Source of the DNA: a virus
Length of the DNA: 64,000 nt
Reading direction: 5' to 3' (one strand)
IMG/VR virus record: IMGVR_UViG_3300044972_000601
Span: 1-64,000 of that record
Within the stretch, counting starts at the first letter, position 1. Every line of letters begins with the position of its first letter. Positions 1 to 24,054 of the stretch are shown here, in pieces. The position numbers were made by a program, and so were the translations under genes. The notes below the pieces were generated by a model. The model was not told the origin of the DNA. It was given only the letters and a program-made list of their open reading frames with translations, and ran no database searches.

Positions 1-109
1 AATACCAAAAACTCCATACTCATCTGGATGCATCAACTTTTTTCGGTGTTGATCGGCTTCGTCAGCAGTTGAGAATCCTTTACTATAAGCCGTGAATAAT
101 GTGTTCATT

Positions 110-253
110 TTATTTCTTTCCAATCTTGGTTACTACTTCTACTTTGCTCAATTGCAGTTGATAAAGGAATCTACGGTATGTCCGCAATGCTGCAATGCTC
201 ATTGGATCTGTCTCACCTTCAAGTTCAGCAAGTTCTTTAATTCGTTCGTTCAT
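110..253 (-). CDS. Small protein starting with the MNERIKELAE family N-terminus, then diverging
   Basis: Manual translation; start overlaps the stop of the upstream HFGVEE gene (ATGA). Confidence 0.6.
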   Translation of the reverse strand: MNERIKELAELEGETDPMSIAALRTYRRFLYQLQLSKVEVVTKIGKK

Positions 254-453
254 TCTTCAACTCCGAAATGTTCAGCAACTTTGCTTGCAATTACCGTTGA
301 TTTAACTTTATGACCTTCATATTCAGTGTCAGTTCGATAACATACATCCATACATTCTCGCACAATCAACTGGGCGAACTTTTCCAAGTCAATGTTGTAT
401 TCTGAATAACGATGGTAGCATTGTTCAGCAAGTTGTTGAATTCGTTCGTTCAT
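250..453 (-). CDS. MNERI/HFGVEE-family mini-protein
   Basis: MNERIQQLAEQ...EKFAQLIVREC...HFGVEE; start reassigned to ATG at 453. Confidence 0.8.
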   Translation of the reverse strand: MNERIQQLAEQCYHRYSEYNIDLEKFAQLIVRECMDVCYRTDTEYEGHKVKSTVIASKVAEHFGVEE

Positions 454-569
454 AAAAACCACTCCATGTAAATCCAGGCCACAATGCAAGCAACATTGAA
501 CCATACAGCAAACAACACCATGTAGAGCATCACCTGAGCCCGCCGTCCTGCTTGTTCACCTTCGTTCAT
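450..569 (-). CDS. Small single-TM hypothetical protein
   Basis: MNEGEQ...VMLYMVLFAVWFNVACIVAWIY; ATGA-coupled to both neighbours. Confidence 0.55.
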   Translation of the reverse strand: MNEGEQAGRRAQVMLYMVLFAVWFNVACIVAWIYMEWFL

Positions 570-784
570 TCTTCAACTCCTAATGTTGCGGGATTATGAT
601 CTAGACGGTTACCGTTATCGTCTGAATAGAAGGTGGCATCATCGTCTGTTATTGTAACACACAAATCGCTATGAAGCAAGTCATAATCGGTGAACTCACC
701 CAAGTCTGTGTACACACGAAACTGGTACTTGTCCAGGGCTGTGTATATTAAATGGCCCTCTACTCCGTCTGCTGATAGTTTCAT
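566..784 (-). CDS. Hypothetical protein ending in the family LGVEE junction
   Basis: MKLSADGVEG...; start overlaps stop of 781..975. Confidence 0.7.
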   Translation of the reverse strand: MKLSADGVEGHLIYTALDKYQFRVYTDLGEFTDYDLLHSDLCVTITDDDATFYSDDNGNRLDHNPATLGVEE

Positions 785-975
785 TCTTGTGTCCTTTGTG
801 GGTAATAGTAATAACAATAAGGCCTGTTGGTGTTCCAATCTCCAGTCATGCCATCCAAATCCTGTAGGCTATCCACAGCGCGAGCTGTCATGCTGTCATG
901 CACAATCCATGGAGTGTCACGCCTTGCCCGCAGGTATTGCTTGAGATAGATCCGGCTTTGTTCCAGCCGATTCAT
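781..975 (-). CDS. Hypothetical protein
   Basis: Coupled ORF in the minus-strand operon. Confidence 0.55.
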   Translation of the reverse strand: MNRLEQSRIYLKQYLRARRDTPWIVHDSMTARAVDSLQDLDGMTGDWNTNRPYCYYYYPQRTQE

Positions 976-1063
976 TCTGTATCCGTTCTTTTATCTTCGT
1001 TGGAGCGATATGCCATAAAGAACACACCCACGACAAATCCCATTACTAATCCCCAAAAGAAAC

Positions 1064-1255
1064 TCATAGTTCAACTTTAATTTTATCTTTGGGAATCTGG
1101 TTATAGGGCATGTTGTGTTTGAGGCTCTCTTCCATGATATGAGCCAAGTCATCTTCAAATTTTGTATATCCGGGATTGGCTCGTAGTCGTTGCCAAAATG
1201 GACTATTGGTGTCATTGCTGAACACTTCCTTGATACTGGTTTTATATGCCTTCAT
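1064..1255 (-). CDS. Hypothetical protein (ends KVEL, like the family junction)
   Basis: ATGA overlap with 1252..1458. Confidence 0.65.
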   Translation of the reverse strand: MKAYKTSIKEVFSNDTNSPFWQRLRANPGYTKFEDDLAHIMEESLKHNMPYNQIPKDKIKVEL

Positions 1256-1458
1256 TCTTCAACTCCAAAACGGTCTTGAATTCTTTGTTCAATCTCATAG
1301 CATCTATCCAGCGCCCAGTCATCGGGTTCAGAAATGTTTCCTACATTATGTGCAATATCCATACATTCCCGAACAATCAACTCGGCGAACTTTTCTGTGT
1401 TAAACCCACATTCAGTTTCAGATTGTTTCATCAATTCTTTGAGCAGTTTATAGTTCAT
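1252..1458 (-). CDS. MNERI/HFGVEE-family mini-protein
   Basis: EKFAELIVREC...RFGVEE. Confidence 0.8.
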   Translation of the reverse strand: MNYKLLKELMKQSETECGFNTEKFAELIVRECMDIAHNVGNISEPDDWALDRCYEIEQRIQDRFGVEE

Positions 1459-1700
1459 TCTTCAACTCCGAAATGTTTTAAAATCTCTTCTGCCAATTCT
1501 CGCCTACCCCTATTGTAGTCAGATACGCCACCAACTACGACATTTTTATATTGTAATTTAACACATTCTTTGACAATCAGTTCGGCTAATCTATCAATCC
1601 GGCTAAGAAAAGCTGGGGCTGGTATGTTATAAAACCCCATGTCCTCGCCGTAGCTGACAAGCCCAGCTTCCTCAAGCAAGTCTTTAATTCGTTCGTTCAT
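1455..1700 (-). CDS. MNERI/HFGVEE-family mini-protein
   Basis: MNERIKDL...LAELIVKEC...HFGVEE. Confidence 0.85.
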   Translation of the reverse strand: MNERIKDLLEEAGLVSYGEDMGFYNIPAPAFLSRIDRLAELIVKECVKLQYKNVVVGGVSDYNRGRRELAEEILKHFGVEE

Positions 1701-1942
1701 TCTTCAACTCCGAAATGTTCTCGAATCTCATCACCCATGGTTCCGCCACCGTTTGATTTTTCACGCAGGATAAAATCCACTTTACCAGCACATTCCTTTA
1801 CAATCAACTCGGCAAACTTTTGGTCATTATCTCTCTGAAACGCATAGTGCGCTTCCGGGTAAGGTATTTTGTTTCCTTTAGCCCAGTCTGCTCTAACTTC
1901 TGCTCTAGCCTGTTCAGCAAGTTGTTTAATTCGTTTATTCAT
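1697..1942 (-). CDS. MNERI/HFGVEE-family mini-protein
   Basis: MNKRIKQLAEQA...KFAELIVKEC...HFGVEE. Confidence 0.85.
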   Translation of the reverse strand: MNKRIKQLAEQARAEVRADWAKGNKIPYPEAHYAFQRDNDQKFAELIVKECAGKVDFILREKSNGGGTMGDEIREHFGVEE

Positions 1943-2133
1943 TCTTCAACTCCGAAATGCTTCAACACTTCACCGCCAATATCTTGTTCATTTGTATCTT
2001 GTGCCCAACTAGCACGATTGGCGCATTCCCGCACAATCAACTCGGCGAACTTTGCTACATCTTCAAATGGGACTGTCCCTGTTCCGTCAAATAATTTTGC
2101 TTGGTAAGCAAGTTTTACAAATCGGTCGTTCAT
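1939..2133 (-). CDS. MNERI/HFGVEE-family mini-protein
   Basis: MNDRF...KFAELIVREC...HFGVEE. Confidence 0.85.
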   Translation of the reverse strand: MNDRFVKLAYQAKLFDGTGTVPFEDVAKFAELIVRECANRASWAQDTNEQDIGGEVLKHFGVEE

Positions 2134-2360
2134 AGTTCAACTCCAAAATGGTGTTTAATCTTTTTAACAGTGTCCTTGTCATGTTCCTTTAATGCCCGAA
2201 CTCTTTCGTTGGCAAATGGCTCATGTGGGTTTAGTATCATATACTTTTGATCCACAAACAATTCTGCACATTCCCGAACAATCAACTCGGCAAACTTTTT
2301 TGTCTCAATTGTAAGCTCTAATTCAGCCTCTGTGGCAAGTTCTCGAATTCGTTGGTTCAT
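2130..2360 (-). CDS. MNERI/HFGVEE-family mini-protein
   Basis: MNQRIRELA...KFAELIVREC...HFGVEL; start reassigned to 2360. Confidence 0.8.
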   Translation of the reverse strand: MNQRIRELATEAELELTIETKKFAELIVRECAELFVDQKYMILNPHEPFANERVRALKEHDKDTVKKIKHHFGVEL

Positions 2361-2473
2361 GTGCATACTCCAGTAGTTCGGTGTATGATAGTGTATTCGG
2401 GTATGGTGACCACACTGAGCAATACAATCCACAACAAGGTGGCTGTGATGATGCCCAAGCAGAACTGTTTCAT
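2357..2473 (-). CDS. Small membrane protein
   Basis: MKQFCLGIITATLLWIVLLSVV; ATGA-coupled on both sides. Confidence 0.55.
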   Translation of the reverse strand: MKQFCLGIITATLLWIVLLSVVTIPEYTIIHRTTGVCT

Positions 2474-2805
2474 GCCAATTCCAATTGCTTAACGTGTTTG
2501 CAAGCACCACGATAGGTGTAGCCTGGGCAGGTGCATGTGCCCGCTGATGTGTCCACAGTGTAGGTTTGACCTTTGCTGCCCTCAACTGACACCACGTGGC
2601 TGGCCACAACAGGTGTTTCAAATGGATTGGGCGAGACCACGTCAAACTTACGTGCTCGTCGATCAAAGCCTTTGATGGGCGATTTGAAGTAAAATGGCAC
2701 AGTAGTACCTGAGCGTATGTAAGCAATCAGTGTGTTGCCATCCAGCAGATAAGTGTGATTGGCAGTGTTACCTGGCCACGCAGTGGTTTCCAATAGGGCT
2801 TGCAT
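2470..2805 (-). CDS. SWIM zinc-finger protein
   Basis: C-terminal YTVD...CTCPGYTYRGACKH (CxC...CxH); first gene after promoter 2834-2862. Confidence 0.7.
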   Translation of the reverse strand: MQALLETTAWPGNTANHTYLLDGNTLIAYIRSGTTVPFYFKSPIKGFDRRARKFDVVSPNPFETPVVASHVVSVEGSKGQTYTVDTSAGTCTCPGYTYRGACKHVKQLELA

Positions 2806-2833
2806 AAAGAACTCATGTAGTTGGTATGTGATG

Positions 2834-2862
2834 ATTATAGCAGGTGTGGCCCGTGAAGTCAA
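2834..2862 (-). promoter_or_regulatory. sigma70-type early promoter driving the leftward operon
   Basis: TTGACT-17bp-TATAAT on the minus strand. Confidence 0.8.
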
Positions 2863-3013
2863 GGGTCAAGATTGCCAAACCCGAGAATCGGCTGCGAAAA
2901 AATTTTTGAGCATTCAGCGGCCAAAATACGGGAAAGCAATTCGAAACGCCGCCCGGTACAAGCGCGGTCGCCGTTTCTCTTGGTGATTCACAATTCCCAT
3001 GTTACAATATGGT

Positions 3014-3241
3014 ATGACTAAATGGATCACAATACTCACTGCCCTATCACTGCAAGGCTGTGCCACTGCATACACAGTGACCTCCACGGCCACATGGGTT
3101 GCAACTGGTAAAAGCGTAACGGATCATGTGACTAGTAAGCTCACATATGGTGATTGCGATGCAGTTCGTATGATAACAAAGCTAACTTACTACTGTGAAA
3201 TGACGGATCCAAGTAAGACATACAACCGTACGGGACTGTGA
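3014..3241 (+). CDS. Putative small lipoprotein
   Basis: MTKWITILTALSLQG-C lipobox-like signal. Confidence 0.55.
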   Translation: MTKWITILTALSLQGCATAYTVTSTATWVATGKSVTDHVTSKLTYGDCDAVRMITKLTYYCEMTDPSKTYNRTGL

Positions 3242-3297
3242 ACATAGCTACGCACAGGAGACCCCGCTGTTGATGTGTGCGTATACACGAGCAATGA

Positions 3298-3411
3298 CTA
3301 GTTTATATGTTTGATCAACACTAGTATAATGCCAACACCCAGCGTGCCTGCCAGCATGCGCAGTAACCATAACAGCACAGTCAGCAGTAGTTCGGTTAGT
3401 AGTTGATTCAT
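3298..3411 (-). CDS. Small hydrophobic protein
   Basis: MNQLLTELLLTVLLWLLRMLAGTLGVGIILVLIKHIN, lying between two repeat copies. Confidence 0.4.
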   Translation of the reverse strand: MNQLLTELLLTVLLWLLRMLAGTLGVGIILVLIKHIN

Positions 3412-3434
3412 AGTGTAGGAGACCCCGCTGTGCG

Positions 3435-3638
3435 TTATGTGTATATGTCTAGATTGGGTCTATGCACCAAATGGCAGTCTGCTAACATGGCTAGACTCAA
3501 TCGGTCTTCCCGTATGTAGAAGCGTATGCCCAGGGGCTGTGCTGAGTATGAGTAGCTACAGAATCCCAATTGATCCAGGGTGTCTGCATCCACAGTGTAT
3601 GAGTCGTAACAGTATAAGCGCATACTGTATATAGTCAA
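3435..3638 (-). CDS. Hypothetical protein
   Basis: ORF between repeat copies; true start uncertain. Confidence 0.45.
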   Translation of the reverse strand: MTIYSMRLYCYDSYTVDADTLDQLGFCSYSYSAQPLGIRFYIREDRLSLAMLADCHLVHRPNLDIYT

Positions 3639-4154
3639 ACCAGTACGTTAGGCCCCGCTGTGAGCTCTGCGTGTACAAGCTGTGTGCAGTTAGGCCCCGC
3701 TGTTGATGTGTGCGTGTATAGTGGTTAGGCGGAGATTTTAGAGAAATGTAGATAGAAGATTGGGATGATGGGAGTAACCATTAAAACTATGCCTCTCTGC
3801 CCCACCCGGGACCTCATCGCTAGACACCGTACGCCACGGTCCGGAACCCCACTCTTGATTCAAAACCCCAGAACCGTTGCACTTTATCACACTATTCTGC
3901 ACTTTTCCACATGTTTCTAACCTGGCAACCGCACTCGTTGCCCCTGTACGCTGGGTGGCGGTGAGTCTAGATGCACTTTAGTACGCATTCTTTATGTGTT
4001 GTGTCACATAATATAGTCAGTGAGTCCCTATATATGCTACTCAACACATATTTGCTGTACAGTGTATATACAGTAAGGCATGGTGTCTCACTAGATTAAC
4101 CAACTCAATAGTGCTGAACCATATAAGTACTATGTACACTGGAGGAACACTAAC

Positions 4155-4394
4155 ATGATTAACAGTCTAGCTCAAATACGTTTTCCAACTCATCAAGTCG
4201 TCATCAGTCGCAGTGATGATTACATACACATATTCAAGTATACAGACTCAGCATGTGCATATGAAGTATTCACTAGCAGTATAGCGGCAGGTGATTACTT
4301 ATTAATAGAACCGGACAGTCAGCATTATCGTGTGGTAATAGAAGGTGATGTTGCTTGGATGCCTATATATTGCAGGCCTTCACCTTTCCTATAA
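4155..4394 (+). CDS. Hypothetical protein
   Basis: GGAGGA SD upstream, TAAGTA late-like motif further upstream. Confidence 0.6.
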   Translation: MINSLAQIRFPTHQVVISRSDDYIHIFKYTDSACAYEVFTSSIAAGDYLLIEPDSQHYRVVIEGDVAWMPIYCRPSPFL

Positions 4395-4492
4395 TACATT
4401 AATTGTATTAAGGCGGTTCAAACCCGTATCAATTGTCATATAGAGGCGGGACCCAACCCGCCCAAACTCGTTTATCAACTCGTTTAATATTA

Positions 4493-4616
4493 TGTGGATA
4501 AGTCTGTGGATAACTTAGTTTAGGGGCAGTGTGAATAACCTGTGCATAACTTTATCCACAGCCCCTTAATCTCTCGCCCAAAAAGTTATCCACAGCTTAT
4601 ACATCAGTTATCCACA
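4493..4616. promoter_or_regulatory. Cluster of 7 DnaA boxes (TTATNCACA)
   Basis: Reverse boxes at 4493, 4505, 4530, 4541; forward boxes at 4552, 4586, 4608; 5 are perfect TTATCCACA. Confidence 0.85.
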
Positions 4617-4671
4617 GCCGAAAACGTGCGCAGCCCCGCCGTCCATCCCCACTATGTTCGAACATGAGTGT

Positions 4672-4774
4672 ATTATAACACGTTTTGGGCACAGTGTCAA
4701 ACGTGTTAGCAAAGACCCTGTTAGCAGTGTGGGTATTTTTTTGACTTGACGTTTTGGGCATTGTTTGCTATAAT
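4672..4774. promoter_or_regulatory. Divergent sigma70 promoter pair
   Basis: Minus: TTGACA-17-TATAAT (4700-4672); plus: TTGACG-17-TATAAT (4746-4774). Confidence 0.85.
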
Positions 4775-4779
4775 ACACT

Positions 4780-5103
4780 ATGATGAAAACAAAACGAACT
4801 GCCCGTAAAGACTGCAACTACGTTATCTACGTAGCCGAGCACAACGGCTCTGCTTACATTGGACTCACCCGTAAGGGCACTGTAAGCATCGCCAAAGCTG
4901 TCAAAGAACGGTGGCGTAAGCATATCAGCAGAGCCCGGCACGAGGACAGAGACTGGGAACTGTACAAGTACATCAAATCGGGCAACTGGGACGGATGGAC
5001 TCATACAGTACTAGACATCGTGCGTGGCCGTGCTGAAGCGTATGCATACGAGCGTGAGCTTGTAAAGCATATGGAACCCGAGCTGAATGACCAGTACCTT
5101 TGA
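4780..5103 (+). CDS. GIY-YIG family nuclease
   Basis: VIY...AYIGLT...RWRKH...E...PELN motif order. Confidence 0.75.
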   Translation: MMKTKRTARKDCNYVIYVAEHNGSAYIGLTRKGTVSIAKAVKERWRKHISRARHEDRDWELYKYIKSGNWDGWTHTVLDIVRGRAEAYAYERELVKHMEPELNDQYL

Positions 5104-5168
5104 AGGGTTATTGACACACTCTTCAAATGGTGCTATAATACATACTTAAACAACAAAGGAGCGAAACG

Positions 5169-5456
5169 ATGAAGTTTACACAAGCAACATGGCAAGAGGC
5201 AAACGGCACTAGCCTGCAGGGTTACATTAATGCAACTTACGCAGACTTGGTAGAGCGTTTTGGTGAGCCCGAATGTGGTGGTGACAAGACTACAGTGGAG
5301 TGGGTGCTGAAGTTTGCGGACGGCACTGTGGCCACTATCTATGATTGGAAACTTGACGAGACGCCCACTGACATGTATAATTGGCACATCGGCGGTAAAA
5401 ACAACACTGCTGTCACTCGCGTTACATCCACATTCAAGCAAGGAGCAACTGTATGA
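5169..5456 (+). CDS. Early hypothetical protein
   Basis: Own promoter plus GGAGCGAA SD. Confidence 0.8.
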   Translation: MKFTQATWQEANGTSLQGYINATYADLVERFGEPECGGDKTTVEWVLKFADGTVATIYDWKLDETPTDMYNWHIGGKNNTAVTRVTSTFKQGATV

Positions 5457-5734
5457 AACAGAATTACACCATGTACTGCTACAAGAAGGACCGCCGTTGC
5501 AAGACTGGCGAGAGACTGTTCTCCACCACAGTGTGGCAGGACCGCACACTGGAGGGATTGGAGCGGGAGATGCGTGACATGTCACGTGACCTATATCCGG
5601 GCACTGACTGGCGGTTTGAGTTCGTTCCCACAATGAAGACTGTGAAGAACTTGATGAGTGGCAAAGACATTCAAATCCCACACGACACACCTCGCTCGTG
5701 CGATCCGTCAAGCGAACTCTACTGGAGCATGTGA
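5453..5734 (+). CDS. Early hypothetical protein
   Basis: GGAGC SD, ATGA overlap. Confidence 0.75.
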   Translation: MKQNYTMYCYKKDRRCKTGERLFSTTVWQDRTLEGLEREMRDMSRDLYPGTDWRFEFVPTMKTVKNLMSGKDIQIPHDTPRSCDPSSELYWSM

Positions 5735-5898
5735 TGAAGAACGAGATTGAACGCTTGAACTTTGTCATTTGGGCAAAGACTCGTTTCCCGGGCTTTACCA
5801 CCAATCATGTACAGTATACCAAGGCCAATCGGGCATGGCGGGCTGTGGCACGTAAAGACCCTATGGTTGACAAGGTTATTAGATCCTGCTATAATTAA
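5734..5898 (+). CDS. Early hypothetical protein
   Basis: MKNEIERLNF; coupled start. Confidence 0.55.
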   Translation: MKNEIERLNFVIWAKTRFPGFTTNHVQYTKANRAWRAVARKDPMVDKVIRSCYN

Positions 5899-5929
5899 GG
5901 CTACAGTAAACAACTAAGGAGCGAAACTT

Positions 5930-6130
5930 ATGCGTACACAGACAACCCGACTGCTAGAGATGATGGACGAAGGTCTTATCTCAGCCCAAGCCATTGCTGA
6001 GATGGCTCTGGCCTACATGAGCGAAGACGATGTGGCAGACATGATGAGGGCCAATGACATCCTGGAGGAAGAGGATGATGGGCAACCCAGCGAATCCCAG
6101 GAGTGGGAATCGTTTGACGCAGACTGCTAA
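5930..6130 (+). CDS. Early acidic hypothetical protein
   Basis: Promoter plus GGAGCGAA SD. Confidence 0.8.
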   Translation: MRTQTTRLLEMMDEGLISAQAIAEMALAYMSEDDVADMMRANDILEEEDDGQPSESQEWESFDADC

Positions 6131-6140
6131 GGAGCACACT

Positions 6141-6515
6141 ATGACACGCTATTACGACGAACTGGCCGTTTACGAACGCAACGGATTTGATATCATTGTG
6201 GACAAATCATATGAAGACCTGGATCCCAAAGACTGTTTTGATGACGACTGCTTCAACATCAAAGAAATGTATTCCGACATCGAGTGCGGGAACCTTGACT
6301 GGTTCATGCTCCGTGTCCGAGTTATGGTTGAGAACATCGAACTCAGCTCGGAGTTCTTGGGCGGATGCTTATACAAAGACGCCCGCGAAGTCCTTACAGA
6401 CGGCACGGCAGAAGACCTCATCGACATGGCTCTGACTGAAGCCAAGAAGGATGTCTACAGGCTGTACAAGAAGTTCCAGGACATCAGCTGGGAACTTGAC
6501 GCACAATCGGTTTGA
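6141..6515 (+). CDS. Early hypothetical protein
   Basis: AAGGAG SD before ATG 6141. Confidence 0.75.
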   Translation: MTRYYDELAVYERNGFDIIVDKSYEDLDPKDCFDDDCFNIKEMYSDIECGNLDWFMLRVRVMVENIELSSEFLGGCLYKDAREVLTDGTAEDLIDMALTEAKKDVYRLYKKFQDISWELDAQSV

Positions 6516-6552
6516 TGCTATAATAAACACTTAAACACACACAGGAGCGAAG

Positions 6553-6888
6553 ATGCTAACCATTCAACAAGTGAATTCAGCTATCATGTTGCAGACATGG
6601 ACCAATGAGCAACTGACCAGCATGATTGATGCAGTCAAGTGGAATCGGGCTACATTGGCCAAGATCACCAAACGTAGCCTCAGCATTGGTGACAACGTGA
6701 ACTTCACATCCAGCAAGACTGGTGTGAATGTAACGGGTGTAGTGACTAAGATTGCCATCAAGTATGTCACGGTGAAGACTGTGCAGGGCTTGTGGAGAGT
6801 GCCAGCCAACATGCTGGAGAAGGTTGAAGAGGAGTGGACTCCGGACAATGCAGACTTCAACGACAGAGGTTCACGTCATCACTATTGA
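6553..6888 (+). CDS. Early hypothetical protein (SH3-like C-terminal pattern)
   Basis: Promoter plus GGAGCGAA SD; IGDNV...GVVTKI...WRVP. Confidence 0.75.
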   Translation: MLTIQQVNSAIMLQTWTNEQLTSMIDAVKWNRATLAKITKRSLSIGDNVNFTSSKTGVNVTGVVTKIAIKYVTVKTVQGLWRVPANMLEKVEEEWTPDNADFNDRGSRHHY

Positions 6889-6928
6889 TTGACAAGGATA
6901 GGTTCATGTGCTATAATAAGCACATGAA

Positions 6929-7143
6929 CAGTTAGATAAGAGTTAAAGGTTACCCACACCGTTAGGCACTGTAAGACGCGAGCACAGAGGGCACTCTACG
7001 CAATCTTACAGTGTATGAAATAGGAGCAAAAGCTCTGGAGATGCGGCGGAGCATGTGGGAAGTAATGACCGTCAAGGCCCGTGAGAGATGCGCTTACAGG
7101 TAGACATAGATTGACAATGGTTCCTTTAGTTCTTTTCTAACTG
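6929..7143 (+). ncRNA. Candidate ~215-nt multi-stem structured RNA
   Basis: 21-bp closing stem 6929-6949/7123-7143 with nested helices; own promoter; followed by tRNA. Confidence 0.65.
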
Positions 7144-7149
7144 AGATTT

Positions 7150-7224
7150 GCCGAGGTAGTCCTCTGGGAGGGCAACGGATTGTCTATCCGACCTAGGCGG
7201 GTTCGATCCCCGTCCTCGGCGCCA
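7150..7224 (+). tRNA. tRNA-Asp (GTC)
   Basis: GCCGAGG/CCTCGGC acceptor stem, TTCGA T-loop, encoded CCA. Confidence 0.85.
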
Positions 7225-7389
7225 TTCAAGGCATTCAGGTAGTCCCTGATGTAAGCCCAATCCATGAACTGTTGTTTTTTCACAACACCCAAAAAAAGAC
7301 CTGGTTGACATCAGGGTCTTTGCACAAGCTGTTGACGTTTTGGTGGAAGTACGCTATAATACATGCATACACACTAAAAAGGACACACA

Positions 7390-7644
7390 ATGCTTACACA
7401 ATGCATAGCAAAAGCAAAATTAGTTTTTAACAAAAAACTCAAAACTTATAAACTTGTTGTAGCGTTTAACGCACACAAAACAATCAAGCCAAACGGGGAC
7501 GTAAAATACAGCTTCCCTACGCAAGCAAAATGCAATTATGTAAGCGGAGATTTGCTTGCAGACAATTTGCAAAACGAGCTTGCAACTGTACTGCCTACAG
7601 TTTATGCAACATTACGCACAAACAGCGTAGAGTTTGTAGATTAA
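7390..7644 (+). CDS. Early hypothetical protein
   Basis: Promoter 7332, AAGGA SD. Confidence 0.75.
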   Translation: MLTQCIAKAKLVFNKKLKTYKLVVAFNAHKTIKPNGDVKYSFPTQAKCNYVSGDLLADNLQNELATVLPTVYATLRTNSVEFVD

Positions 7645-7749
7645 TACTAAAGTTAATGACCTTACCAGCTGTAGGGTTATTACAGCGCATTTGACATTTT
7701 AGCCAAAATGCGCTATAATAACAACTTAGCAACAAAGAAAGTAACAAAA

Positions 7750-7986
7750 ATGGGAATTTACGCAAGCACAGTTAACGCATATGCAGAATCTGCCGCTCGT
7801 GCGCAAGTGTACACTATGCAAAACAAATTGCAAAGCTACGGACAAACAGCACAGCAACTAAATGTTAGCAGTGCAAAGTTCCGCAGGGACATCGAAACTA
7901 AAAAAGCAAAGTTTATTGCAAAAATGCAAAAAGACAAAATTGCAAAAATGCAAGCAGAGATTGCACACTTGCAAGCAACAGTTTAA
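7750..7986 (+). CDS. Early hypothetical protein (basic, coiled-coil-like)
   Basis: Promoter 7691. Confidence 0.65.
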   Translation: MGIYASTVNAYAESAARAQVYTMQNKLQSYGQTAQQLNVSSAKFRRDIETKKAKFIAKMQKDKIAKMQAEIAHLQATV

Positions 7987-8003
7987 TTTTTAAGGAGCAA
8001 AAC

Positions 8004-8393
8004 ATGTTAGAAAACACTTTTACATTGCACACAAACGGACGCGGCTATTGGTCGCGCAAAGCAACTGCTGTAACTGTTGAGGCGCTAGACTTGCAGTACA
8101 TTACAAACGACAAGGACTTTGGCGAGCTGTGCATACACTTTAACACAAACGATTGGGACACAAAAACAGACGGGCTTATATACACAGACAAAAAGTTTAT
8201 GTCGGAACTGCGCACATACTTGCAAACTGTGGGCTTTACGCAAGCGGAAGCCGACGACGTTAGCTACAGCGAGCAGGGGATGCAAAGCGACAATTATGTT
8301 AGCTGTGACGTAGGGGCTGTGTTTATAGCGGGCTTAGAGCGTTTAGAGCCGGAGCATGTGCAAGCTGTGTATAAGGAGTGCGAGGATGTTTAA
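8004..8393 (+). CDS. Early hypothetical protein
   Basis: AAGGAG SD. Confidence 0.8.
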   Translation: MLENTFTLHTNGRGYWSRKATAVTVEALDLQYITNDKDFGELCIHFNTNDWDTKTDGLIYTDKKFMSELRTYLQTVGFTQAEADDVSYSEQGMQSDNYVSCDVGAVFIAGLERLEPEHVQAVYKECEDV

Positions 8394-8631
8394 CGTAACA
8401 TGCAAGCAACTAGACGACACACTACAATGGACGGGTGCTGTTGCAATTATTGCGGGCCATGTGCTTAACGCTGTAGGGCCTAGCATGTACCCCTACAACA
8501 TTGCAGTATTTGCTGTGGGCACGGTTGCGTTTTTGGCATGGGCCGTGCGTGTGCGCAACATGCCGCAAGCTGTTGTCAACCTCGTAGCATTAGCCATAGG
8601 GCTAGTAGGGTTATACAACGCTGTTGGTTGA
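8386..8631 (+). CDS. Small membrane protein (3 hydrophobic segments)
   Basis: Hydrophobic stretches; start uncertain. Confidence 0.65.
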   Translation: MFNVTCKQLDDTLQWTGAVAIIAGHVLNAVGPSMYPYNIAVFAVGTVAFLAWAVRVRNMPQAVVNLVALAIGLVGLYNAVG

Positions 8632-8683
8632 CGTTTTGGCTAAAGTGCGTTATAATACACACATAGCAACAAAGGAGCACACA

Positions 8684-8839
8684 ATGAGAGACGCAATACT
8701 TGCAAAGCTAGCGGAAGTAGAAGAGATGCTGTTAGAGGCAACGCTGGACGGCGAGCAACTGGCAGAGATGGCAGTGTTTGAAGAAGTGACTGGGGCGTTG
8801 AACACGCTGACAGAAGCGGTTGACTACTACGTGGATTGA
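8684..8839 (+). CDS. Early acidic hypothetical protein
   Basis: Promoter 8628, AAGGAG SD. Confidence 0.75.
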   Translation: MRDAILAKLAEVEEMLLEATLDGEQLAEMAVFEEVTGALNTLTEAVDYYVD

Positions 8840-8880
8840 CTGTATAATTAACACTTAAACAAACATTAGGAGCGAACCAA

Positions 8881-9153
8881 ATGGACAAATACGAAATTGT
8901 AGATATGTTTGAGCAAAACTTTATGACCCGCAGTGAAGGCGAGACCGGCGTAAAGAACTTGGAAAACGTGTGCGAGATCCTGGGCTACGGCACGGGCTTT
9001 ATGCGTAACCGTGCTATTGAGGAGTTCCTCACAGACAATCCGGGTGCTGTAGAAGCCCTGTTCCAGTTTATTACAGAGTGGGCCGTACGCAACTCCGACT
9101 GGCAAGCTGGCATGGAAGATGCTCTTGCTGAAGAGGGGTTGGTTGACGAGTAA
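8881..9153 (+). CDS. Early hypothetical protein
   Basis: Promoter plus GGAGCGAA SD. Confidence 0.8.
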   Translation: MDKYEIVDMFEQNFMTRSEGETGVKNLENVCEILGYGTGFMRNRAIEEFLTDNPGAVEALFQFITEWAVRNSDWQAGMEDALAEEGLVDE

Positions 9154-9201
9154 GCCAAAAGCTGTTATAATACACACATCAACAACACATTGGAGCGAAC
9201 A

Positions 9202-9441
9202 ATGAAAGTATCACAACTCATCGAAGCATTGCAAAGCATGGACCCAACACTGGACGTTCACTTTAGCTACTGCTATGGCGACCACTGGCGCACAGAGGTG
9301 GCCCCTGCTGTGTCACACATTGACATGGGCATAGTGGGTTACAGCGAGTACCACCGTATGGACAAAGTCATCGAAGTTGATTATGACGACGAGGACAGCG
9401 CCGACGAGTGCAAGGGCAAACCCGTAGTTCTTATTGCTTAA
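9202..9441 (+). CDS. Early hypothetical protein
   Basis: MKVSQLIEALQ; GGAGCGAA SD places the start at 9202. Confidence 0.8.
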   Translation: MKVSQLIEALQSMDPTLDVHFSYCYGDHWRTEVAPAVSHIDMGIVGYSEYHRMDKVIEVDYDDEDSADECKGKPVVLIA

Positions 9442-9450
9442 GGAGCAGAC

Positions 9451-9705
9451 ATGATTACAGCAGACACACTAGAGGTTCTAACAGATTTTGGACCACAGTA
9501 TCTAACCAGAGCCGCACAGGATGCAGGCTACAGAGGTCCTAACTTCACATCGTGCAAGTTCCTGGGCATCACTAATGGCGGCCAGTTCTGCTACATGGGT
9601 GTCTTCCAAGTAGAGGGCGGTACTGACAGCACAAAGGTCTTCCTTACATATGACCACACAGAGGATAAGGTCTTTGCAGACGTTCAGTTGACAGACTGGG
9701 CTTGA
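9451..9705 (+). CDS. Early hypothetical protein
   Basis: AAGGAG SD. Confidence 0.75.
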   Translation: MITADTLEVLTDFGPQYLTRAAQDAGYRGPNFTSCKFLGITNGGQFCYMGVFQVEGGTDSTKVFLTYDHTEDKVFADVQLTDWA

Positions 9706-9748
9706 TACGCTATAATATACGCTTACACAAACACACTAGGAGCACACA

Positions 9749-10225
9749 ATGGGAACACGTTCAACAATCGCATTGGAATTCGCAGACGGCACAGTAGAGC
9801 AAGTGTATTGCCACTGGGACGGCTATCTCGAGCACAACGGCAAAATCCTTGCTGAACACTATTCAGATCCGTTCAAACTGCGTGACTTGATTGATCAAGG
9901 CAGCATCAGTTCGCTGGGCAAGGTTGTTGGCAATACACATCCTTTCAGCCCATTCGAAGGCGAGACACAGAAAGCACAGTACGAAGCGGCAATGGCAGCG
10001 GGTGCAACTACATTCTACGCACGAGATCGTGGCGAGGAGTTGCAAGTAGAGAAGTTCAACGACTTCCAGGACTACTTGGCTCATCACCAGTATGAGGAAT
10101 ACGAGTACATCCTACGCCGGGACGGCAACTGGTACGTTCAATGCCACGATGACGCCTTTGTTACATTAAAGTCTGCAATCGCAGACGAACAAGATCGAAT
10201 TGCACAAGAGGAGACAGCAGAATGA
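9749..10225 (+). CDS. Conserved phage early protein (MGTRS...YCHWDGY type)
   Basis: Recognisable motif; own promoter. Confidence 0.8.
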   Translation: MGTRSTIALEFADGTVEQVYCHWDGYLEHNGKILAEHYSDPFKLRDLIDQGSISSLGKVVGNTHPFSPFEGETQKAQYEAAMAAGATTFYARDRGEELQVEKFNDFQDYLAHHQYEEYEYILRRDGNWYVQCHDDAFVTLKSAIADEQDRIAQEETAE

Positions 10226-10413
10226 GCAAGATGGCCGAACTAGCATACGATATCGAGCAACTATACATCGAGGGCCTGCATCCTACAAAGATTGCCAAAG
10301 AGCTCGACTGTCCGTTGACAGTGGTCTACGATTGGTTGGAATCATGTAGCTTGGAAGCAGATGTTGCGGAAAAGCCACAGGATGAACCTTACAGCCCTTA
10401 CTTGGGCGCTTGA
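10222..10413 (+). CDS. Small HTH-like hypothetical protein
   Basis: GLHPTKIAKELDCPLTVVYDWL resembles a helix-turn-helix. Confidence 0.6.
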   Translation: MSKMAELAYDIEQLYIEGLHPTKIAKELDCPLTVVYDWLESCSLEADVAEKPQDEPYSPYLGA

Positions 10414-10463
10414 CACTCTGGGCTTTTGGTTGTATAATTACTACATACAGACAGGAGCACACA

Positions 10464-10604
10464 GTGAAAATCATAATCAAAGTACCAAAGAAGCACAGAG
10501 AACACATCATCCTGTTCTGTACAGGCACACCTTTCCGGCAGAAGGTTGTGCAGAGCAAGATCCAATACCGTCGTCAACCCAAACACAAAGGACGCGAGCA
10601 ATGA
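10464..10604 (+). CDS. Small basic hypothetical protein
   Basis: GTG start with AGGAG SD after promoter 10410. Confidence 0.6.
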   Translation: MKIIIKVPKKHREHIILFCTGTPFRQKVVQSKIQYRRQPKHKGREQ

Positions 10605-10816
10605 ACGAACGAATTGATGAATTGTGGCAAGAGGCAGTAGACGCCACGTGGATTGATAATTCTAAGTCTGCTCACGAAAAGTTCGCCGAGTTGATTGTGC
10701 GGGAATGTAAAGAGAACTTTGGTAAAGTTTGGTATGAACAAGGTTTAGATATTCGTGGTGCAGAATTTGGTAAGTTTATGACACGGTTTGAAGAACATTT
10801 CGGAGTTGAAAAATGA
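10601..10816 (+). CDS. MNERI/HFGVEE-family mini-protein
   Basis: MNERIDEL...EKFAELIVREC...HFGVEK. Confidence 0.85.
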   Translation: MNERIDELWQEAVDATWIDNSKSAHEKFAELIVRECKENFGKVWYEQGLDIRGAEFGKFMTRFEEHFGVEK

Positions 10817-11010
10817 ACGAACGAATTAACCTACTGTTGGAACAGTCCGGCCTCCAGCCTTATTACGATGCACAAGAGGGCCAAATCGAAAAGTTCGCCC
10901 AGTTGATTGTGCAGGAATGTATGGAAGAAGTTATGACTTACCAGCATCACCGCAATCCTACTATACCGTTCATAGTAGAAGATATTAAAAAACATTTCGG
11001 AGTTGGTTGA
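10813..11010 (+). CDS. MNERI/HFGVEE-family mini-protein
   Basis: MNERINLL...EKFAQLIVQEC...HFGVG. Confidence 0.85.
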   Translation: MNERINLLLEQSGLQPYYDAQEGQIEKFAQLIVQECMEEVMTYQHHRNPTIPFIVEDIKKHFGVG

Positions 11011-11065
11011 CAGGACTAGCCAATCCTGCTATAATACACACATGGACAACGCAAAAGGAAGCAAG

Positions 11066-11311
11066 ATGAACAAACAATGCTACGTTAGATTCAACGAAGA
11101 CCTGCATGTTCTCTACAATGATCGTTTCATCCGCGTGTCGCTGTTCACGTTCGAGGACGGCGGCCAACGATGCTGTCATTTGAGCGGGCCGGTGGGCTGG
11201 GAACTCAGCCACACAGGGTCCGAAGCTGACGGAAAGTTTGAAGAGCTGTTGGGCCTAGAAGAAGTCTCGTGGGATGACTTGAAGCGGCTGGGCTTCACAC
11301 AATACGGTTGA
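11066..11311 (+). CDS. Early hypothetical protein
   Basis: Follows a cassette promoter. Confidence 0.7.
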   Translation: MNKQCYVRFNEDLHVLYNDRFIRVSLFTFEDGGQRCCHLSGPVGWELSHTGSEADGKFEELLGLEEVSWDDLKRLGFTQYG

Positions 11312-11360
11312 CAGGACTAGCCAATCCTGCTATAATACACGCATACACTAGGAGCACAAG

Positions 11361-11585
11361 ATGATCGTACACAATGTTCAAGTCTACCCAGTCTATGCTG
11401 GTCATATCAATGATCACAAGGTCATCAGAGAGGAAGAGTTTAACTCCCGTGAGGATGCACTCATGTGGGTAGGATACTACAACCAGCATGAGCACTGGAA
11501 CCAAAATGATTGGGCTGAGAACGGCAACGGCGTCGTTGCTGTCTACACTGGCATGATTGATACTGAAACAGGAGAGAATCTATGA
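11361..11585 (+). CDS. Early hypothetical protein
   Basis: Follows a cassette promoter, AGGAG SD. Confidence 0.75.
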   Translation: MIVHNVQVYPVYAGHINDHKVIREEEFNSREDALMWVGYYNQHEHWNQNDWAENGNGVVAVYTGMIDTETGENL

Positions 11586-11818
11586 ACGAACGAATTCTAA
11601 AACTTGCCAAGCAGTCGGGTATGCGATCACCAGACTTGTTTAAACTTACAGTATCTCATATGTCCACAGATACCTTAGAAAAGTTCGCCGAGTTGATTGT
11701 GAAAGAATGTGTTAAATTACAATATAAAAATGTCGTAGTTGGTGGCGTGTCTGACTACAACCGGGGCAGGCGAGAATTGACGGAAGATATTCAAAAACAT
11801 TTTGGAGAAAACCTATGA
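11582..11818 (+). CDS. MNERI/HFGVEE-family mini-protein
   Basis: MNERILKL...EKFAELIVKEC...HFGENL. Confidence 0.85.
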   Translation: MNERILKLAKQSGMRSPDLFKLTVSHMSTDTLEKFAELIVKECVKLQYKNVVVGGVSDYNRGRRELTEDIQKHFGENL

Positions 11819-12033
11819 TTGAGATCCAAGGATTTAGCCCTAAGCAAATGGCACTGGCAGACATCATGTGGGCCATCAGCACCAAGGAAGGTGTGGATGC
11901 GTTCATCGCAACCCTGCCAAAGGCAGAGCGCCGTGAGTGCGAATTGGTGAAAGAGATGTTGGTCCTGGCCTTCCTGGACGAGATTGTTAATACCCAGGAA
12001 GCTAGCATGGTAATTGACAAGTTTCGTCTTTGA
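11815..12033 (+). CDS. Early hypothetical protein
   Basis: ATGA-coupled. Confidence 0.75.
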   Translation: MIEIQGFSPKQMALADIMWAISTKEGVDAFIATLPKAERRECELVKEMLVLAFLDEIVNTQEASMVIDKFRL

Positions 12034-20542: not shown

Positions 20543-22006
20543 TTACACATCATCCTGTGGTAAGTTGTTCAGTAAATCTCTTAGCTTGCTACTTTCGACC
20601 TGTGCTTTGATTCTAGGCTTGCCCAGGTCAAAACCTTCCGCAGGTGTGGCACGTTCCCATGCAGGTTTGGTTTCATCTGTTACAGTTTGACGGGCTTTGA
20701 TACTGCTTAACAAACTGGATCCTGCACTGGCTTGTCCAGAACCATATGTATCTTCTTGCTCACAGTCTGTGATACGCAGTGTATCAATATTAAAGTCCAG
20801 ATCAATCTTTTGACCGACACCACTGCTGGAGCGTGTCTTCATCAGCTGAATTTGATACTTGCCACGTTCACGCATAGCACGACTTGTAAAAATACCAAAC
20901 ACGTTATCTGCTGTTTGAATCTTGGAGAGCCCGCCCGATATGTGGCTGTGGTCAAACTCAATTTCTTCCACTGCTCCACGATTCAACTGCGCCGCAGTAA
21001 CGAATACACATTGCTTTTCCACTGCTAGATTACGTAGTTCTTCACTAACATACTTGTCCTTGACAAACAAGTTTTCTGCACTGATCTTCTTGCTCAAGGG
21101 CATTAGCAAGTCCATGTAGTCAACTAGCAATACATCAATCTTACGGCCCATTTTGATTTCATACTCTTTCATATAAGCACGAATATCATTGGCTGTCTTA
21201 CCACTTGGCATGTACTTGACTTGGAACTGTCCAGATTTCTTGCCAATCATTTTGACTTTGATCTCAACGTCATCGATGTTCTTGAAAATCTCTCTTGTAG
21301 GGATTCCGGTTATCATTGCATCCACACGCATGGATACAAGTTCTTCACTCAATTCTAATGTGAGATACAGTACGTTAAGTCCAGATGTTGCATAGTTAAC
21401 ACCTAAGTTAGCTAGGAAAAGACTTTTACCAGCGCCACTACCACCAGCCCAGATATTAAGTTCCCCGCGATTAAAACCCCCAAATAACTTATCGTCGACA
21501 GCTTTCCAACCTGTTGAAATTTGTCCATTCTTGTCCTTGATCCTCATCAATCGTGCTCTTGGGTCTTTGAAATAATCAGTACCCATGTCTCTTTGTAATC
21601 CAATCTGTACCGCTTGTTTGATTTTTTCTTCCACTGGACCGTACTCACCTTTTTCCAGCAAATCTGCCGATTCTAGAATAGCACGTTCCAGTCCTTTGTG
21701 GCGGGTAAACGTTTCAAAGTCGTTGAGCAACCATTCAAAGTGTTCTTCACGTAGTTCTGTTGCTGCCTTGAGATTACTGCCTGTTGCCGCATTTAGAATG
21801 TCAGGCGTGGGTAACACATTGTTCTCACTTACATATGCAGTAAGAAACTCCGCTGGCTCACGTAGCTTACGGTCGAATAAACTGCTGTCAAAAATACTTT
21901 GGCAGCGTACAAATGTGCCTGCATCTGCCAGCATCATTTCCAAGTAGACTTTCTGGATGTCATATCCATAGTCCACGTTTTGTCTTGCTTTTTTATCATC
22001 TGTCAT
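20543..22006 (-). CDS. 41: DnaB-like replicative helicase (T4 gp41-like)
   Basis: GGSGAGKS, LELSEE, LLVDY, TAAQLNR, MKTR. Confidence 0.93.
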   Translation of the reverse strand: MTDDKKARQNVDYGYDIQKVYLEMMLADAGTFVRCQSIFDSSLFDRKLREPAEFLTAYVSENNVLPTPDILNAATGSNLKAATELREEHFEWLLNDFETFTRHKGLERAILESADLLEKGEYGPVEEKIKQAVQIGLQRDMGTDYFKDPRARLMRIKDKNGQISTGWKAVDDKLFGGFNRGELNIWAGGSGAGKSLFLANLGVNYATSGLNVLYLTLELSEELVSMRVDAMITGIPTREIFKNIDDVEIKVKMIGKKSGQFQVKYMPSGKTANDIRAYMKEYEIKMGRKIDVLLVDYMDLLMPLSKKISAENLFVKDKYVSEELRNLAVEKQCVFVTAAQLNRGAVEEIEFDHSHISGGLSKIQTADNVFGIFTSRAMRERGKYQIQLMKTRSSSGVGQKIDLDFNIDTLRITDCEQEDTYGSGQASAGSSLLSSIKARQTVTDETKPAWERATPAEGFDLGKPRIKAQVESSKLRDLLNNLPQDDV

Positions 22007-22980: not shown

Positions 22981-23090
22981 TTGTAGATAAATGGATCACG
23001 TTTGCGTAATTCTTCGAGCCGTTCTTTAAAACGTTTGCGTTCTTGATACTTGTACCAAGGTCGTAATAAAAAATCAATTATTCGTTTCAT
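22977..23090 (-). CDS. Small protein ending ELRKRDPFIYK
   Basis: Manual translation; coupled to neighbours. Confidence 0.65.
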   Translation of the reverse strand: MKRIIDFLLRPWYKYQERKRFKERLEELRKRDPFIYK

Positions 23091-24054
23091 GTTCTTCCTT
23101 AAACCATTTCTTTGCCTTAAGTTGTATCTTAAGGCTGTTGGATTCTTTAGCGGATGTTATTAGGTATAATGTTGCTAGTCTACCTAACTTAACTACTGCA
23201 TCGTTTACATCTTTAATGCCTTCGGGCCAGTTGGGCATACTTACTGACCAGCCATACTCTAATGCTTGCTCTATTGTCTTAGGTCCTTCGTGATCTCTAT
23301 CGGGAACAAGAACAATTTCCCTACCCAATTGCTTGAGTAGCCAGTTTTGGCTGTCTTTAATCTCAGCACCTAACAATGCACATCCATCAATACTTATCGC
23401 GTCAAACGGGCCTTCACATACAATTACGAAGTCTCGATTATTTGCTTGCCTATCTAAATTAAACACATATCCCGGTTGTTGCTCACTGATGTACTTGGGT
23501 TTAGTGTCGCCTATGGCCCGAGCTGTGTAACCCACAATGACATTGTCTTTGAGGAACGGTATGATTACTCTATTGCTAAACCCTATTTTAGGTGTCCAAT
23601 AAAATGGATAATCTTCGAGATATAAACTTCTACTTGAAAGATATTCAAGCACAGGAATGAGCTTTTCCGGGATATGGTCTAAACTTGATATAAGTTCGCT
23701 ATCCAAAGGCATTGCTCTAGGTTCAAACTTGGGTACTATGCTTTGTATAATTGTATTGGAATTGTCATTAAGACGCAGTGCTTCTAGCTTTAATTGGCTA
23801 ATAGTATCATCGCCCATGTTGAGCAATTGCATGAACTTGTTCATCTTTTGACTAATAGTTCTGCCGGGTTGCCAACTGCATTTGAACTGGCAATTAAAAC
23901 AATGATAGCTTACTGCATCGCCACCGTTAATAATAAAGCCGCCACGCTGTCTTTTATCGTCACAGCAAGGGGCATTAAAACTTATCCATCCGCTTGGAGT
24001 TTGTTTTCTTTTACCAGGTAAGTATTGTAGTAGTGTGTCTGCTATTAGGCCCAT
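23074..24054 (-). CDS. 61: DNA primase (gp61-like)
   Basis: N-terminal Zn ribbon (CC...HCFNC), TOPRIM VCEGPFDA, PDRD, KDVND. Confidence 0.9.
   Translation of the reverse strand: MGLIADTLLQYLPGKRKQTPSGWISFNAPCCDDKRQRGGFIINGGDAVSYHCFNCQFKCSWQPGRTISQKMNKFMQLLNMGDDTISQLKLEALRLNDNSNTIIQSIVPKFEPRAMPLDSELISSLDHIPEKLIPVLEYLSSRSLYLEDYPFYWTPKIGFSNRVIIPFLKDNVIVGYTARAIGDTKPKYISEQQPGYVFNLDRQANNRDFVIVCEGPFDAISIDGCALLGAEIKDSQNWLLKQLGREIVLVPDRDHEGPKTIEQALEYGWSVSMPNWPEGIKDVNDAVVKLGRLATLYLITSAKESNSLKIQLKAKKWFKEEHETNN

Follow-up and report, generated by a model that had tools for sequence, protein, structure and literature searches.

A cluster of DnaA boxes within 124 bp of non-coding DNA in an uncultured lake phage is, on sequence comparison, very likely a binding array for the host initiator DnaA, carried as an optional cassette in a conserved early control module. 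Binding of host DnaA to the array is predicted with high confidence. The role of the array is graded lower. The explanation placed first, to which somewhat less than an even chance is given, takes the module for an early replication origin activated by transcription, at which the array, as an optional host-DnaA cassette, aids the first replication round.

Replication origins are unmapped for essentially all jumbo phages, and the textbook picture does not include virulent T4-related phages that use the host initiator. In the literature, DnaA boxes in phages were found reported as T5 sites and as predictions of the Ori-Finder type, none of them for jumbo T4-related phages. The new points are the fixed slot of the array in a promoter-core module, its oriC-like lattice and polarity, and its cassette-like swapping with an alternative motif set. 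The candidate element spans 400 bp and has natural variants with and without boxes across dozens of genomes, which makes it testable by means of cloned DNA for a phage that is uncultured.

The phage and its genomic context

The window, meaning the whole 64,000-nucleotide stretch that was analysed, comprises the first 64 kb of an IMG/VR virus record of 108,205 bp (G000) with a CheckV completeness of about 30%. The record is a fragment of a jumbo myovirus whose full genome is estimated at about 360-380 kb; near-complete relatives in IMG/VR are G001 (356 kb, 96%-complete) and G002 (383 kb, complete). A contractile tail is indicated by an encoded sheath protein of 1074 aa, and the large terminase is of the T4 type, with 54% identity to that of Pseudomonas phage PA5oct and about 45% to the Rak2/CBB/BF group. 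Judged by these proteins, the phage is distantly related to PA5oct and Rak2 and is not T5-like, so the link to T5 drawn in a first-pass annotation of this DNA does not hold for the phage itself. The same annotation credited the phage with its own helicase and primase; these are found as a DnaB-like helicase gene at 20543-22006 and a primase gene at 23074-24054, together with a second helicase and a UvsX-like recombinase. A search for DnaA homologues (PF08299, PF00308) in G000, G001 and G002 found none and returned sub-threshold P-loop noise only. DNA searches against cultured phages (3900-5200 in distant mode, 1-12000 in near mode) gave no match, a DNA search against plasmids gave no match to the region, and the cultured relatives PA5oct, Phosso, Serratia BF, Vibrio 2.275.O and Atu_ph07 have neither the box cluster nor the core motif of the module described below.

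An early block running from 4746 to about 16.3 kb contains about 23 consensus sigma-70 promoters, all on the plus strand. With its many small genes and consensus host promoters, the early region beside the array looks like a host-takeover block. The cluster had earlier been placed near the switch from leftward to rightward genes; in fact the leftward block stops near 2.86 kb, the gene adjoining the array (4155-4394) lies on the plus strand, and 2.9-4.4 kb is occupied by small genes on both strands. At 3435-3638 the minus-strand ORF is 70-76% identical at the amino-acid level in relatives, compared with 59-62% for the plus-strand ORF that overlaps it, and this better conservation is what assigns the genes at 2.9-4.4 kb to mixed strands. 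The early promoters do diverge at the module, both in the window and in G002. GC skew, suggested earlier as a check on an origin, tracks only gene orientation in the window and in the complete G002 and carries no origin signature. A tRNA search found none near the array.

The DnaA-box array

Direct reading of the sequence bears out the array as first described: seven matches to TTATNCACA lie within 4493-4616, first four in one orientation and then three in the opposite one, and five of them are perfect copies of TTATCCACA. The perfect boxes start at 4493 and 4505 on the minus strand and at 4552, 4586 and 4608 on the plus strand; the imperfect ones are TTATTCACA at 4530 and TTATGCACA at 4541, both on the minus strand. 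On the plus strand, the distal half-array (4493-4549, boxes on the minus strand) reads TGTGGATAA, TGTGGATAA, TGTGAATAA and TGTGCATAA at 4493, 4505, 4530 and 4541, with start-to-start spacings of 12, 25 and 11 bp. The promoter-proximal half-array (4552-4616, plus strand) holds the three remaining perfect boxes and a decayed eighth box, TTATACATC, at 4597-4605, which lies 11 bp from each of its neighbours at 4586 and 4608 and is a perfect box in G002. Two box copies of this half-array have the extended form AGTTATCCACAGC. The pair at 4493/4505 is separated by 3 bp and the other pairs by 2 bp, and the sole inverted repeats are the boxes themselves.

Counted over the full record, as had been proposed earlier, TTATNCACA occurs 14 times and TTATCCACA six times, and the 124-bp cluster accounts for half of the former (7/14) and nearly all of the latter (5/6). 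With 0.008 matches (lambda) expected per 124 bp at the background rate, the probability of seven or more is about 4e-19 (lambda^7/7!). The first-pass annotation had also allowed for a host-derived assembly chimera. Two further lake samples, of 2024 and 2020, yielded contigs that match the window without a difference over 2500-5654 and 4017-5654, and since two independent lake metagenomes bridge the site identically, the cluster is not a chimera of this kind. Most of the stretch also occurs in no fewer than 19 lake-water runs. The 9-mer is retained in either orientation, in a pattern that varies from relative to relative, which indicates that the conserved unit is a protein site in DNA and not an RNA feature.

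Array architecture was counted over 29 distinct arrays with 129 boxes in the window phage and its relatives. A large majority of the boxes (109 of 129) are TTATCCACA, most often extended to GTTATCCACAG. In relatives the boxes are maintained by selection as the sequence between them diverges. Adjacent boxes start 11 bp apart in 29 cases, 12 bp apart in 10 and 22 bp apart in 16, and the distances between all pairs, taken modulo 11, peak at 0 (75 pairs), with 48 and 37 at +/-1. An 11-bp lattice is the spacing expected of a cooperative DnaA oligomer. Nearly every array (27 of 29) starts distally in the TGTGGATAA orientation; 13 of the 29 switch once, from TGTGGATAA to TTATCCACA toward the promoter, and 12 keep a single orientation.

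In E. coli MG1655, oriC runs from the AT-rich DUE through cTGTGGATAAc (R1), TTATACACA (R2) and gTTATCCACAg (R4) to mioC, which is directed inward. The same order of AT-rich tract, TGTGGATAA-type boxes, TTATCCACA-type boxes and inward promoter is found in the phage, the extended phage box GTTATCCACAG matches the flanks of R1 and R4, and the 11-bp spacing recurs. From the lattice and the oriC-like polarity it can be argued that what phages copy is the layout of the host origin and not only its 9-mer. The phage module differs from oriC in lacking the dnaA, dnaN and gidA context and GATC clusters, in that its AT-rich tract is short, without the 13-mer set and not conserved, and in that the array is optional among close relatives; in addition, its boxes are nearly all of the high-affinity consensus, whereas oriC mixes strong and weak sites. 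Searches for a DnaA-trio or an IHF site gave only non-conserved near-matches in the module, among them the IHF near-match TATCAACTCGTTT at 4472-4484, which is not conserved in relatives.

The conserved module

Comparison with relatives places the array in a fixed slot of a conserved intergenic module of about 400 bp. A small upstream gene of 79 aa (4155-4394, plus strand; ATG after GGAGG), for which tblastn finds 14 related loci at 45-51% amino-acid identity, terminates just ahead of the module. By direct reading, a GC-rich hairpin, GGCGGG-ACCCAA-CCCGCC, follows at 4445-4462; relatives have GGGCC.../GAGGCGGG hairpins at the equivalent position, which is the site of the upstream gene's terminator-like hairpin. 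The next element is a 28-bp tract of about 70% A+T (4465-4492), composed of a tandem 12-mer repeat family, AACTCGTTTATC / AACTCGTTTAAT, and then ATTA, which abuts the first box. The tract is only moderately unstable; its position in relatives is occupied by TAATACTT..GTTTACAATTTTTTCTA, and it is absent in G002 and L311. An AT-rich flank at 4390-4492 had been claimed earlier, and the claim stands in part: at a scale of 30 bp, a patch at 4382 ranks among the 0.9% least stable windows, but over 100 bp the flank does not stand out.

The promoter side of the array is occupied by an invariant core, GTCCATCCCC...GTTCGAAC on the plus strand (4641-4663), which belongs functionally to the minus strand as the start of the leftward transcript, with the RNA sense GTTCGAAC-N-GGGGATGGAC. 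Its consensus is written GTCCAYCCCC...GTTCGAAC, a 12-bp palindrome, ATGTTCGAACAT, at 4654-4665 is part of it, and the core blocks are invariant across an alignment of 20 sequences. The leftward sigma-70 promoter, TTGACA-17-TGTTATAAT (4672-4700, minus strand; -10 TATAAT, extended -10), matches the consensus at 12 of 12 positions, has its predicted start near 4665 and reads toward the boxes, in agreement with the earlier description of a promoter oriented across them. It is the sole 12/12 minus-strand promoter in the first 12 kb, and a strict pattern recovers it in 52 of 81 module instances.

Between the two promoters lies a dyad, AGACCC-N12-GGGTATTTTTTT, with a T-run (4713-4742, plus strand), which is terminator-like or operator-like and is kept in G002. 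In G002 (L235:6985-7014) both direct GTTAGCA copies of this dyad (AGACCC-N12-GGGTAT(T)) are changed to GATCGCA. The rightward early promoter, TTGACG-17-TATAAT (4746-4774, plus strand; 11/12 match), is the first of the co-oriented consensus promoters of the early block and precedes the first rightward early gene (4780-5103, plus strand, 107 aa), which has 25 related loci at 61-85% amino-acid identity. This gene shows a TATAAT-N5-ATG geometry, with the ATG 5-7 nt past the -10 hexamer in every relative, and its mRNA is probably leaderless. Its protein has a weak GIY-YIG match (Pfam E = 0.0012, below the cut-off); beyond this, family searches with the module-flanking genes found no match and no Rep-like neighbour.

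The leader of the leftward transcript is rich in G. Its first 60 nt contain 23 G and 11 C in the window, and a mean of 21.8 G and 10.6 C over 52 modules. The G-C skew of the leader is +0.35, compared with values between -0.30 and +0.20 for 25 of the 26 other strong promoters of the record. The only other strong consensus promoter with G-rich first 60 nt (17 G, 7 C) is found at about 48589 of G000, on the minus strand. An Rfam search of 3900-5000 returned no family and no match up to E = 5, and the consensus fold of the leftward transcript reached -2.78 kcal/mol with 0 compensatory pairs among 20 relatives. A reading of this transcript as a structured non-coding RNA is ruled out by the absent covariation and the lack of an Rfam match; with no conserved fold, the two invariant core blocks act as sequence. 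A 22-codon leaderless ORF from the predicted leftward start (ATG 4666-4664) was also rejected, as its ATG is not kept in relatives. RNA contigs from two runs, which carry no strand information, cover parts of the region from 4510 rightwards and nothing in 2500-4509.

Distribution among relatives

The core motif was found in 97 stretches of viral contigs, which represent 81 distinct module instances. Thirty of these carry two to nine consensus boxes, located 30-260 bp left of the core, and 51 are without boxes; single boxes do not occur. Where the promoter is recognisable and the flank is full, 20 instances have boxes and 29 do not. The concern, raised with the first description, that the cluster might be absent from relatives is thus answered by arrays at the same slot in 30 of 81 instances. 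G002 has 6/7 perfect boxes inside the homologous 130 bp and, as in the window, a helicase gene 16 kb off; its module lies 86 kb into the complete genome. In G001 the module is present and a box cluster occurs nowhere in the genome. The nearest neighbour of the window, L131 (83% amino-acid identity in the adjacent 107-aa gene), is likewise box-free. On a tree of that gene, which is short and lies in a mosaic region, box presence and absence needs about 10 changes, at least six of them forced by well-supported branches. This pattern shows box presence, as read from the gene tree, to be labile by gain, loss or recombination, with no order of events implied.

The slot of the boxes is filled differently in box-free modules, where a 20-bp palindrome, GTTAGTTGGCGCCAACTAAC, is found in 18 of 29 and TTGTCAACC(AGGT) motifs in 23 of 29. 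The corresponding figures for modules with six to nine boxes are 1 of 8 and 0 of 8. The palindrome and the TTGTCAACC motifs therefore stand in for boxes, suggesting that the slot takes alternative cassettes. It is not claimed that TTGTCAACC is a variant DnaA box, as it has three mismatches to the consensus.

Box-free slots such as L147:5657-5896, L137:1431-1670 and L131:5657-5896 hold GTTAGTTGGCGCCAACTAAC with one to three TTGTCAACCAGGT motifs, and the frequency of both GTTAGTTGGCGCCAACTAAC and TTGTCAACCAGGT drops as box number climbs. A third module type, seen in L290, L297, L300, L305 and L343, has two or three tandem DnaA boxes and iteron-like direct repeats, GGGTTCCAGT..., 250-350 bp left of the core, and resembles plasmid-type origins. 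The module was also considered as a physical genome end, since contigs appeared to end at it, and rejected, being internal in many contigs of 100-380 kb; assembly breaks near it can be explained by a repeat-rich mini-gene array upstream. The ends of G002 (1-2813 and 380639-383411) overlap at just 83-87% identity and have no exact direct terminal repeat, which could mean that the genome was closed on a variable region or that its terminal repeat has diverged.

A possible early origin with an optional DnaA cassette

In the explanation placed first, host RNA polymerase would start from the leftward promoter near 4665 and make the G-rich invariant leader, which would be prone to remain hybridised to its template as an R-loop. 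Leftward transcription would then enter the two helically phased, opposed DnaA half-arrays and end at the short AT-rich tract. A DnaA oligomer on the array may open the DNA there, or may load a replicative helicase onto the displaced strand, the helicase being either host DnaB or the phage DnaB-like protein. Such a scheme would be like E. coli oriC with its mioC read-in, T4 oriF/oriG, or the DnaA box of the pBR322 origin. We infer the binding of DnaA, the R-loop, the loading of helicase and, indeed, that the module is an origin at all.

Several observations favour the origin. A DnaA oligomer calls for half-arrays that are phased and opposed, as these are, and a strong conserved promoter reads a leader with G clusters, an arrangement prone to R-loops, into the array and the AT-rich tract. 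The gene set is of the T4 type, for which origin R-loops act early and recombination later, and pBR322 offers a reported precedent for DnaA-assisted helicase loading beside an R-loop. The cluster far exceeds chance expectation and occurs at a single site of the record; its slot is conserved in relatives including G002, with oriC-like order, polarity and flanks; no phage DnaA is encoded; and the module lies at the divergence of early promoters. What weakens the origin is above all that about 60% of related modules are box-free, including those of L131 and G001. From these, DnaA cannot be essential for replication in the clade, and the indispensability expected of the array in an oriC-type origin is contradicted by G001 and close relatives without the cluster. 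The AT-rich tract is short, moderately unstable and missing from G002 and L311, the GC skew has no origin signature, the replication genes are 16 kb distant rather than adjacent, and neither a DnaA-trio nor an IHF site is conserved. The first-pass suggestion of a host-DnaA-dependent first-round origin is lent some support by the phased, opposed arrays, by transcription running inward across a G-rich leader and by a T4-type replisome that includes UvsX, and is weakened by the many box-free relatives and by the weak, non-conserved AT-rich flank.

T4 oriF (uvsY) and oriG consist of a promoter and a downstream unwinding element, and the transcript persists as an R-loop primer. These origins use a phage middle promoter (MotA) and have no DnaA boxes. 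The window phage resembles T4 in its replisome type and its UvsX, in a strong promoter that reads into a non-coding element, and in a G-rich transcript start suited to R-loop formation; it differs in having a promoter that fully matches the host sigma-70 consensus, and sites for host DnaA in addition. At the pBR322/ColE1 origin, a DnaA box is said to permit DnaA-dependent loading of DnaB beside the R-loop. The proposed logic would be common to both systems, namely an R-loop made by a transcript and a nearby DnaA site able to load helicase. However, the pBR322 box is single and auxiliary to PriA-type loading, it has no sequence similarity to the window, and the R-loop of the phage is a predicted one.

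Accessory DnaA boxes are also known from the iteron replicons P1 oriR, F, RK2 and pSC101 (review PMC4980987). As in the phages, boxes there are accessory beside other protein-binding repeats, variable in number and partly dispensable, and some relatives of the window phage pair two or three boxes with iteron-like GGGTTCCAGT repeats. An iteron replicon origin was nevertheless rejected for the window, where iterons are absent and neither a Rep initiator gene nor a Rep-like neighbour adjoins the array; among relatives, moreover, the alternative motifs replace the boxes and do not accompany them.

A wider form of the origin explanation is possible but is held to be doubtful. The module would then be the early R-loop origin of the whole T4-related jumbo clade, with a slot for swappable cassettes that recruit factors. 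One cassette would be a phased mimic of host oriC that recruits host DnaA, and the other, the 20-bp palindrome with TTGTCAACC, would recruit a different and perhaps phage-encoded factor. If this is true, close relatives could toggle by recombination between initiation that depends on the host initiator and initiation that is independent of the host.

Alternative explanations

DnaA is a transcription factor, and complexes of DnaA with its boxes can halt elongating RNA polymerase, as in the asnC/mioC region. A DnaA oligomer on the array might accordingly stop or throttle the leftward transcript, as a roadblock or a DnaA-sensing switch, ahead of the convergent upstream gene, which this transcript would otherwise enter in antisense; read-through would then depend on the level of host DnaA-ATP, that is, on the growth and replication state of the host. 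We regard both this action and this dependence as possible but unlikely. They fit the position of the boxes, which is always downstream of the conserved leftward promoter (+50 to +260) and upstream of a convergent plus-strand gene, and they fit the slot of box-free relatives, where protein-site-like elements (the palindrome and TTGTCAACC) together with a hairpin and T-run would be interchangeable blocks or operators. On the other hand, no box overlaps the promoter, and since boxes occur in both orientations an orientation-specific block is not indicated. A single terminator would suffice for the purpose, for which seven to nine phased, high-affinity boxes look excessive, and the transcript to be blocked has no evident product, in that neither an ORF nor a fold is conserved.

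The array might instead be a sink or modulator of DnaA in the manner of datA or DARS. As phage genomes multiply, they would titrate host DnaA or alter its nucleotide state and so shut down or deregulate initiation on the host chromosome. This is considered improbable. The boxes are indeed mostly of the highest-affinity type, with R1/R4 flanks; the array is dispensable and patchy, as expected of an accessory trait for host manipulation; and unrelated phage contigs also have 8-10 phased boxes. One copy of seven boxes, however, is negligible at the time when takeover matters, and sizeable titration would begin only once the phage has replicated, by which time the host is lost. Nor does simple titration need strict 11-bp phasing or a fixed place behind a promoter. 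datA and DARS are similar in being clusters of DnaA boxes outside the origin, of mixed orientation, that act on DnaA itself, but they need a specific three-box core and, for datA and DARS2, an IHF site, neither of which is recognised as a conserved feature of the window, and they are not placed behind a strong promoter. If the purpose of the array is only transcription control or titration, the element would still be a useful marker of coupling between host and phage, and a less surprising one.

A DNA-entry signal, also put forward earlier, would have membrane-associated DnaA catch the array, pausing injection or anchoring the early region to the membrane. In T5-like phages the first-step-transfer DNA retains DnaA boxes in pairs, the two 9-mers of a pair being separated by 3 bp (Davison, 2020, bioRxiv 10.1101/866236), and that preprint cites Heusterspreute (1987) for the boxes of the T5 injection-stop region. 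In T5 (NC_005859) boxes are found at 6121/6182/6194 (L357, 6121-6202), between annotated divergent pre-early promoters (5938-6012 minus, 6411-6489 plus), and at 9437-9510, where they lie in iss. The two systems share host-type DnaA boxes in non-coding DNA of the earliest-expressed region of a virulent phage, a pairing of boxes at 3 bp (in the window, the first pair) and, for one T5 group, a position between divergent early promoters akin to that in the window; the array also borders the host-takeover-like block of small genes with consensus host promoters. They differ in that the boxes of T5, about eight and for the most part degenerate, form two groups separated by 3.3 kb and are set in large inverted repeats within its terminal repeat, whereas the window phage, a jumbo myovirus unrelated to T5 and not known to have a terminal repeat, has seven or eight mostly perfect boxes in 124 bp behind a promoter. 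The T5 injection stop lies in the untranslated part of the long terminal repeat of a T5-like siphovirus. The phage studied here is a contractile-tailed jumbo with a T4-type terminase and no T5 relative, and its module is internal in many large contigs, 86 kb into G002 with no fixed end visible nearby. The role of DnaA in T5 is itself a hypothesis, and an entry or tether signal, for which no positive support emerged, is judged very improbable.

Finally, a chance cluster, contamination with host DNA or an assembly artefact is given practically no weight in view of the chance value of about 4e-19, the bridging of the site in two independent samples with zero differences, its recovery in at least 19 lake runs, the homologous arrays in dozens of related phage contigs and the lack of a plasmid match.

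Arrays in unrelated phages

Phased DnaA-box arrays are recurrent in uncultured phages, since they are also found in contigs that have no protein similarity to the window phage. Together with the T5 precedent, these arrays suggest that the docking of host DnaA may be common among phages and has been overlooked as a strategy. The unrelated contigs have 8-10 consensus boxes on an identical 11/12/22-bp lattice, beside terminase, portal or GP88-family genes, at L058:5976-6142, L082:7889-8014, L073:434-580, L032:2737-2846, L111:1936-2119 and L022:3860-3990.
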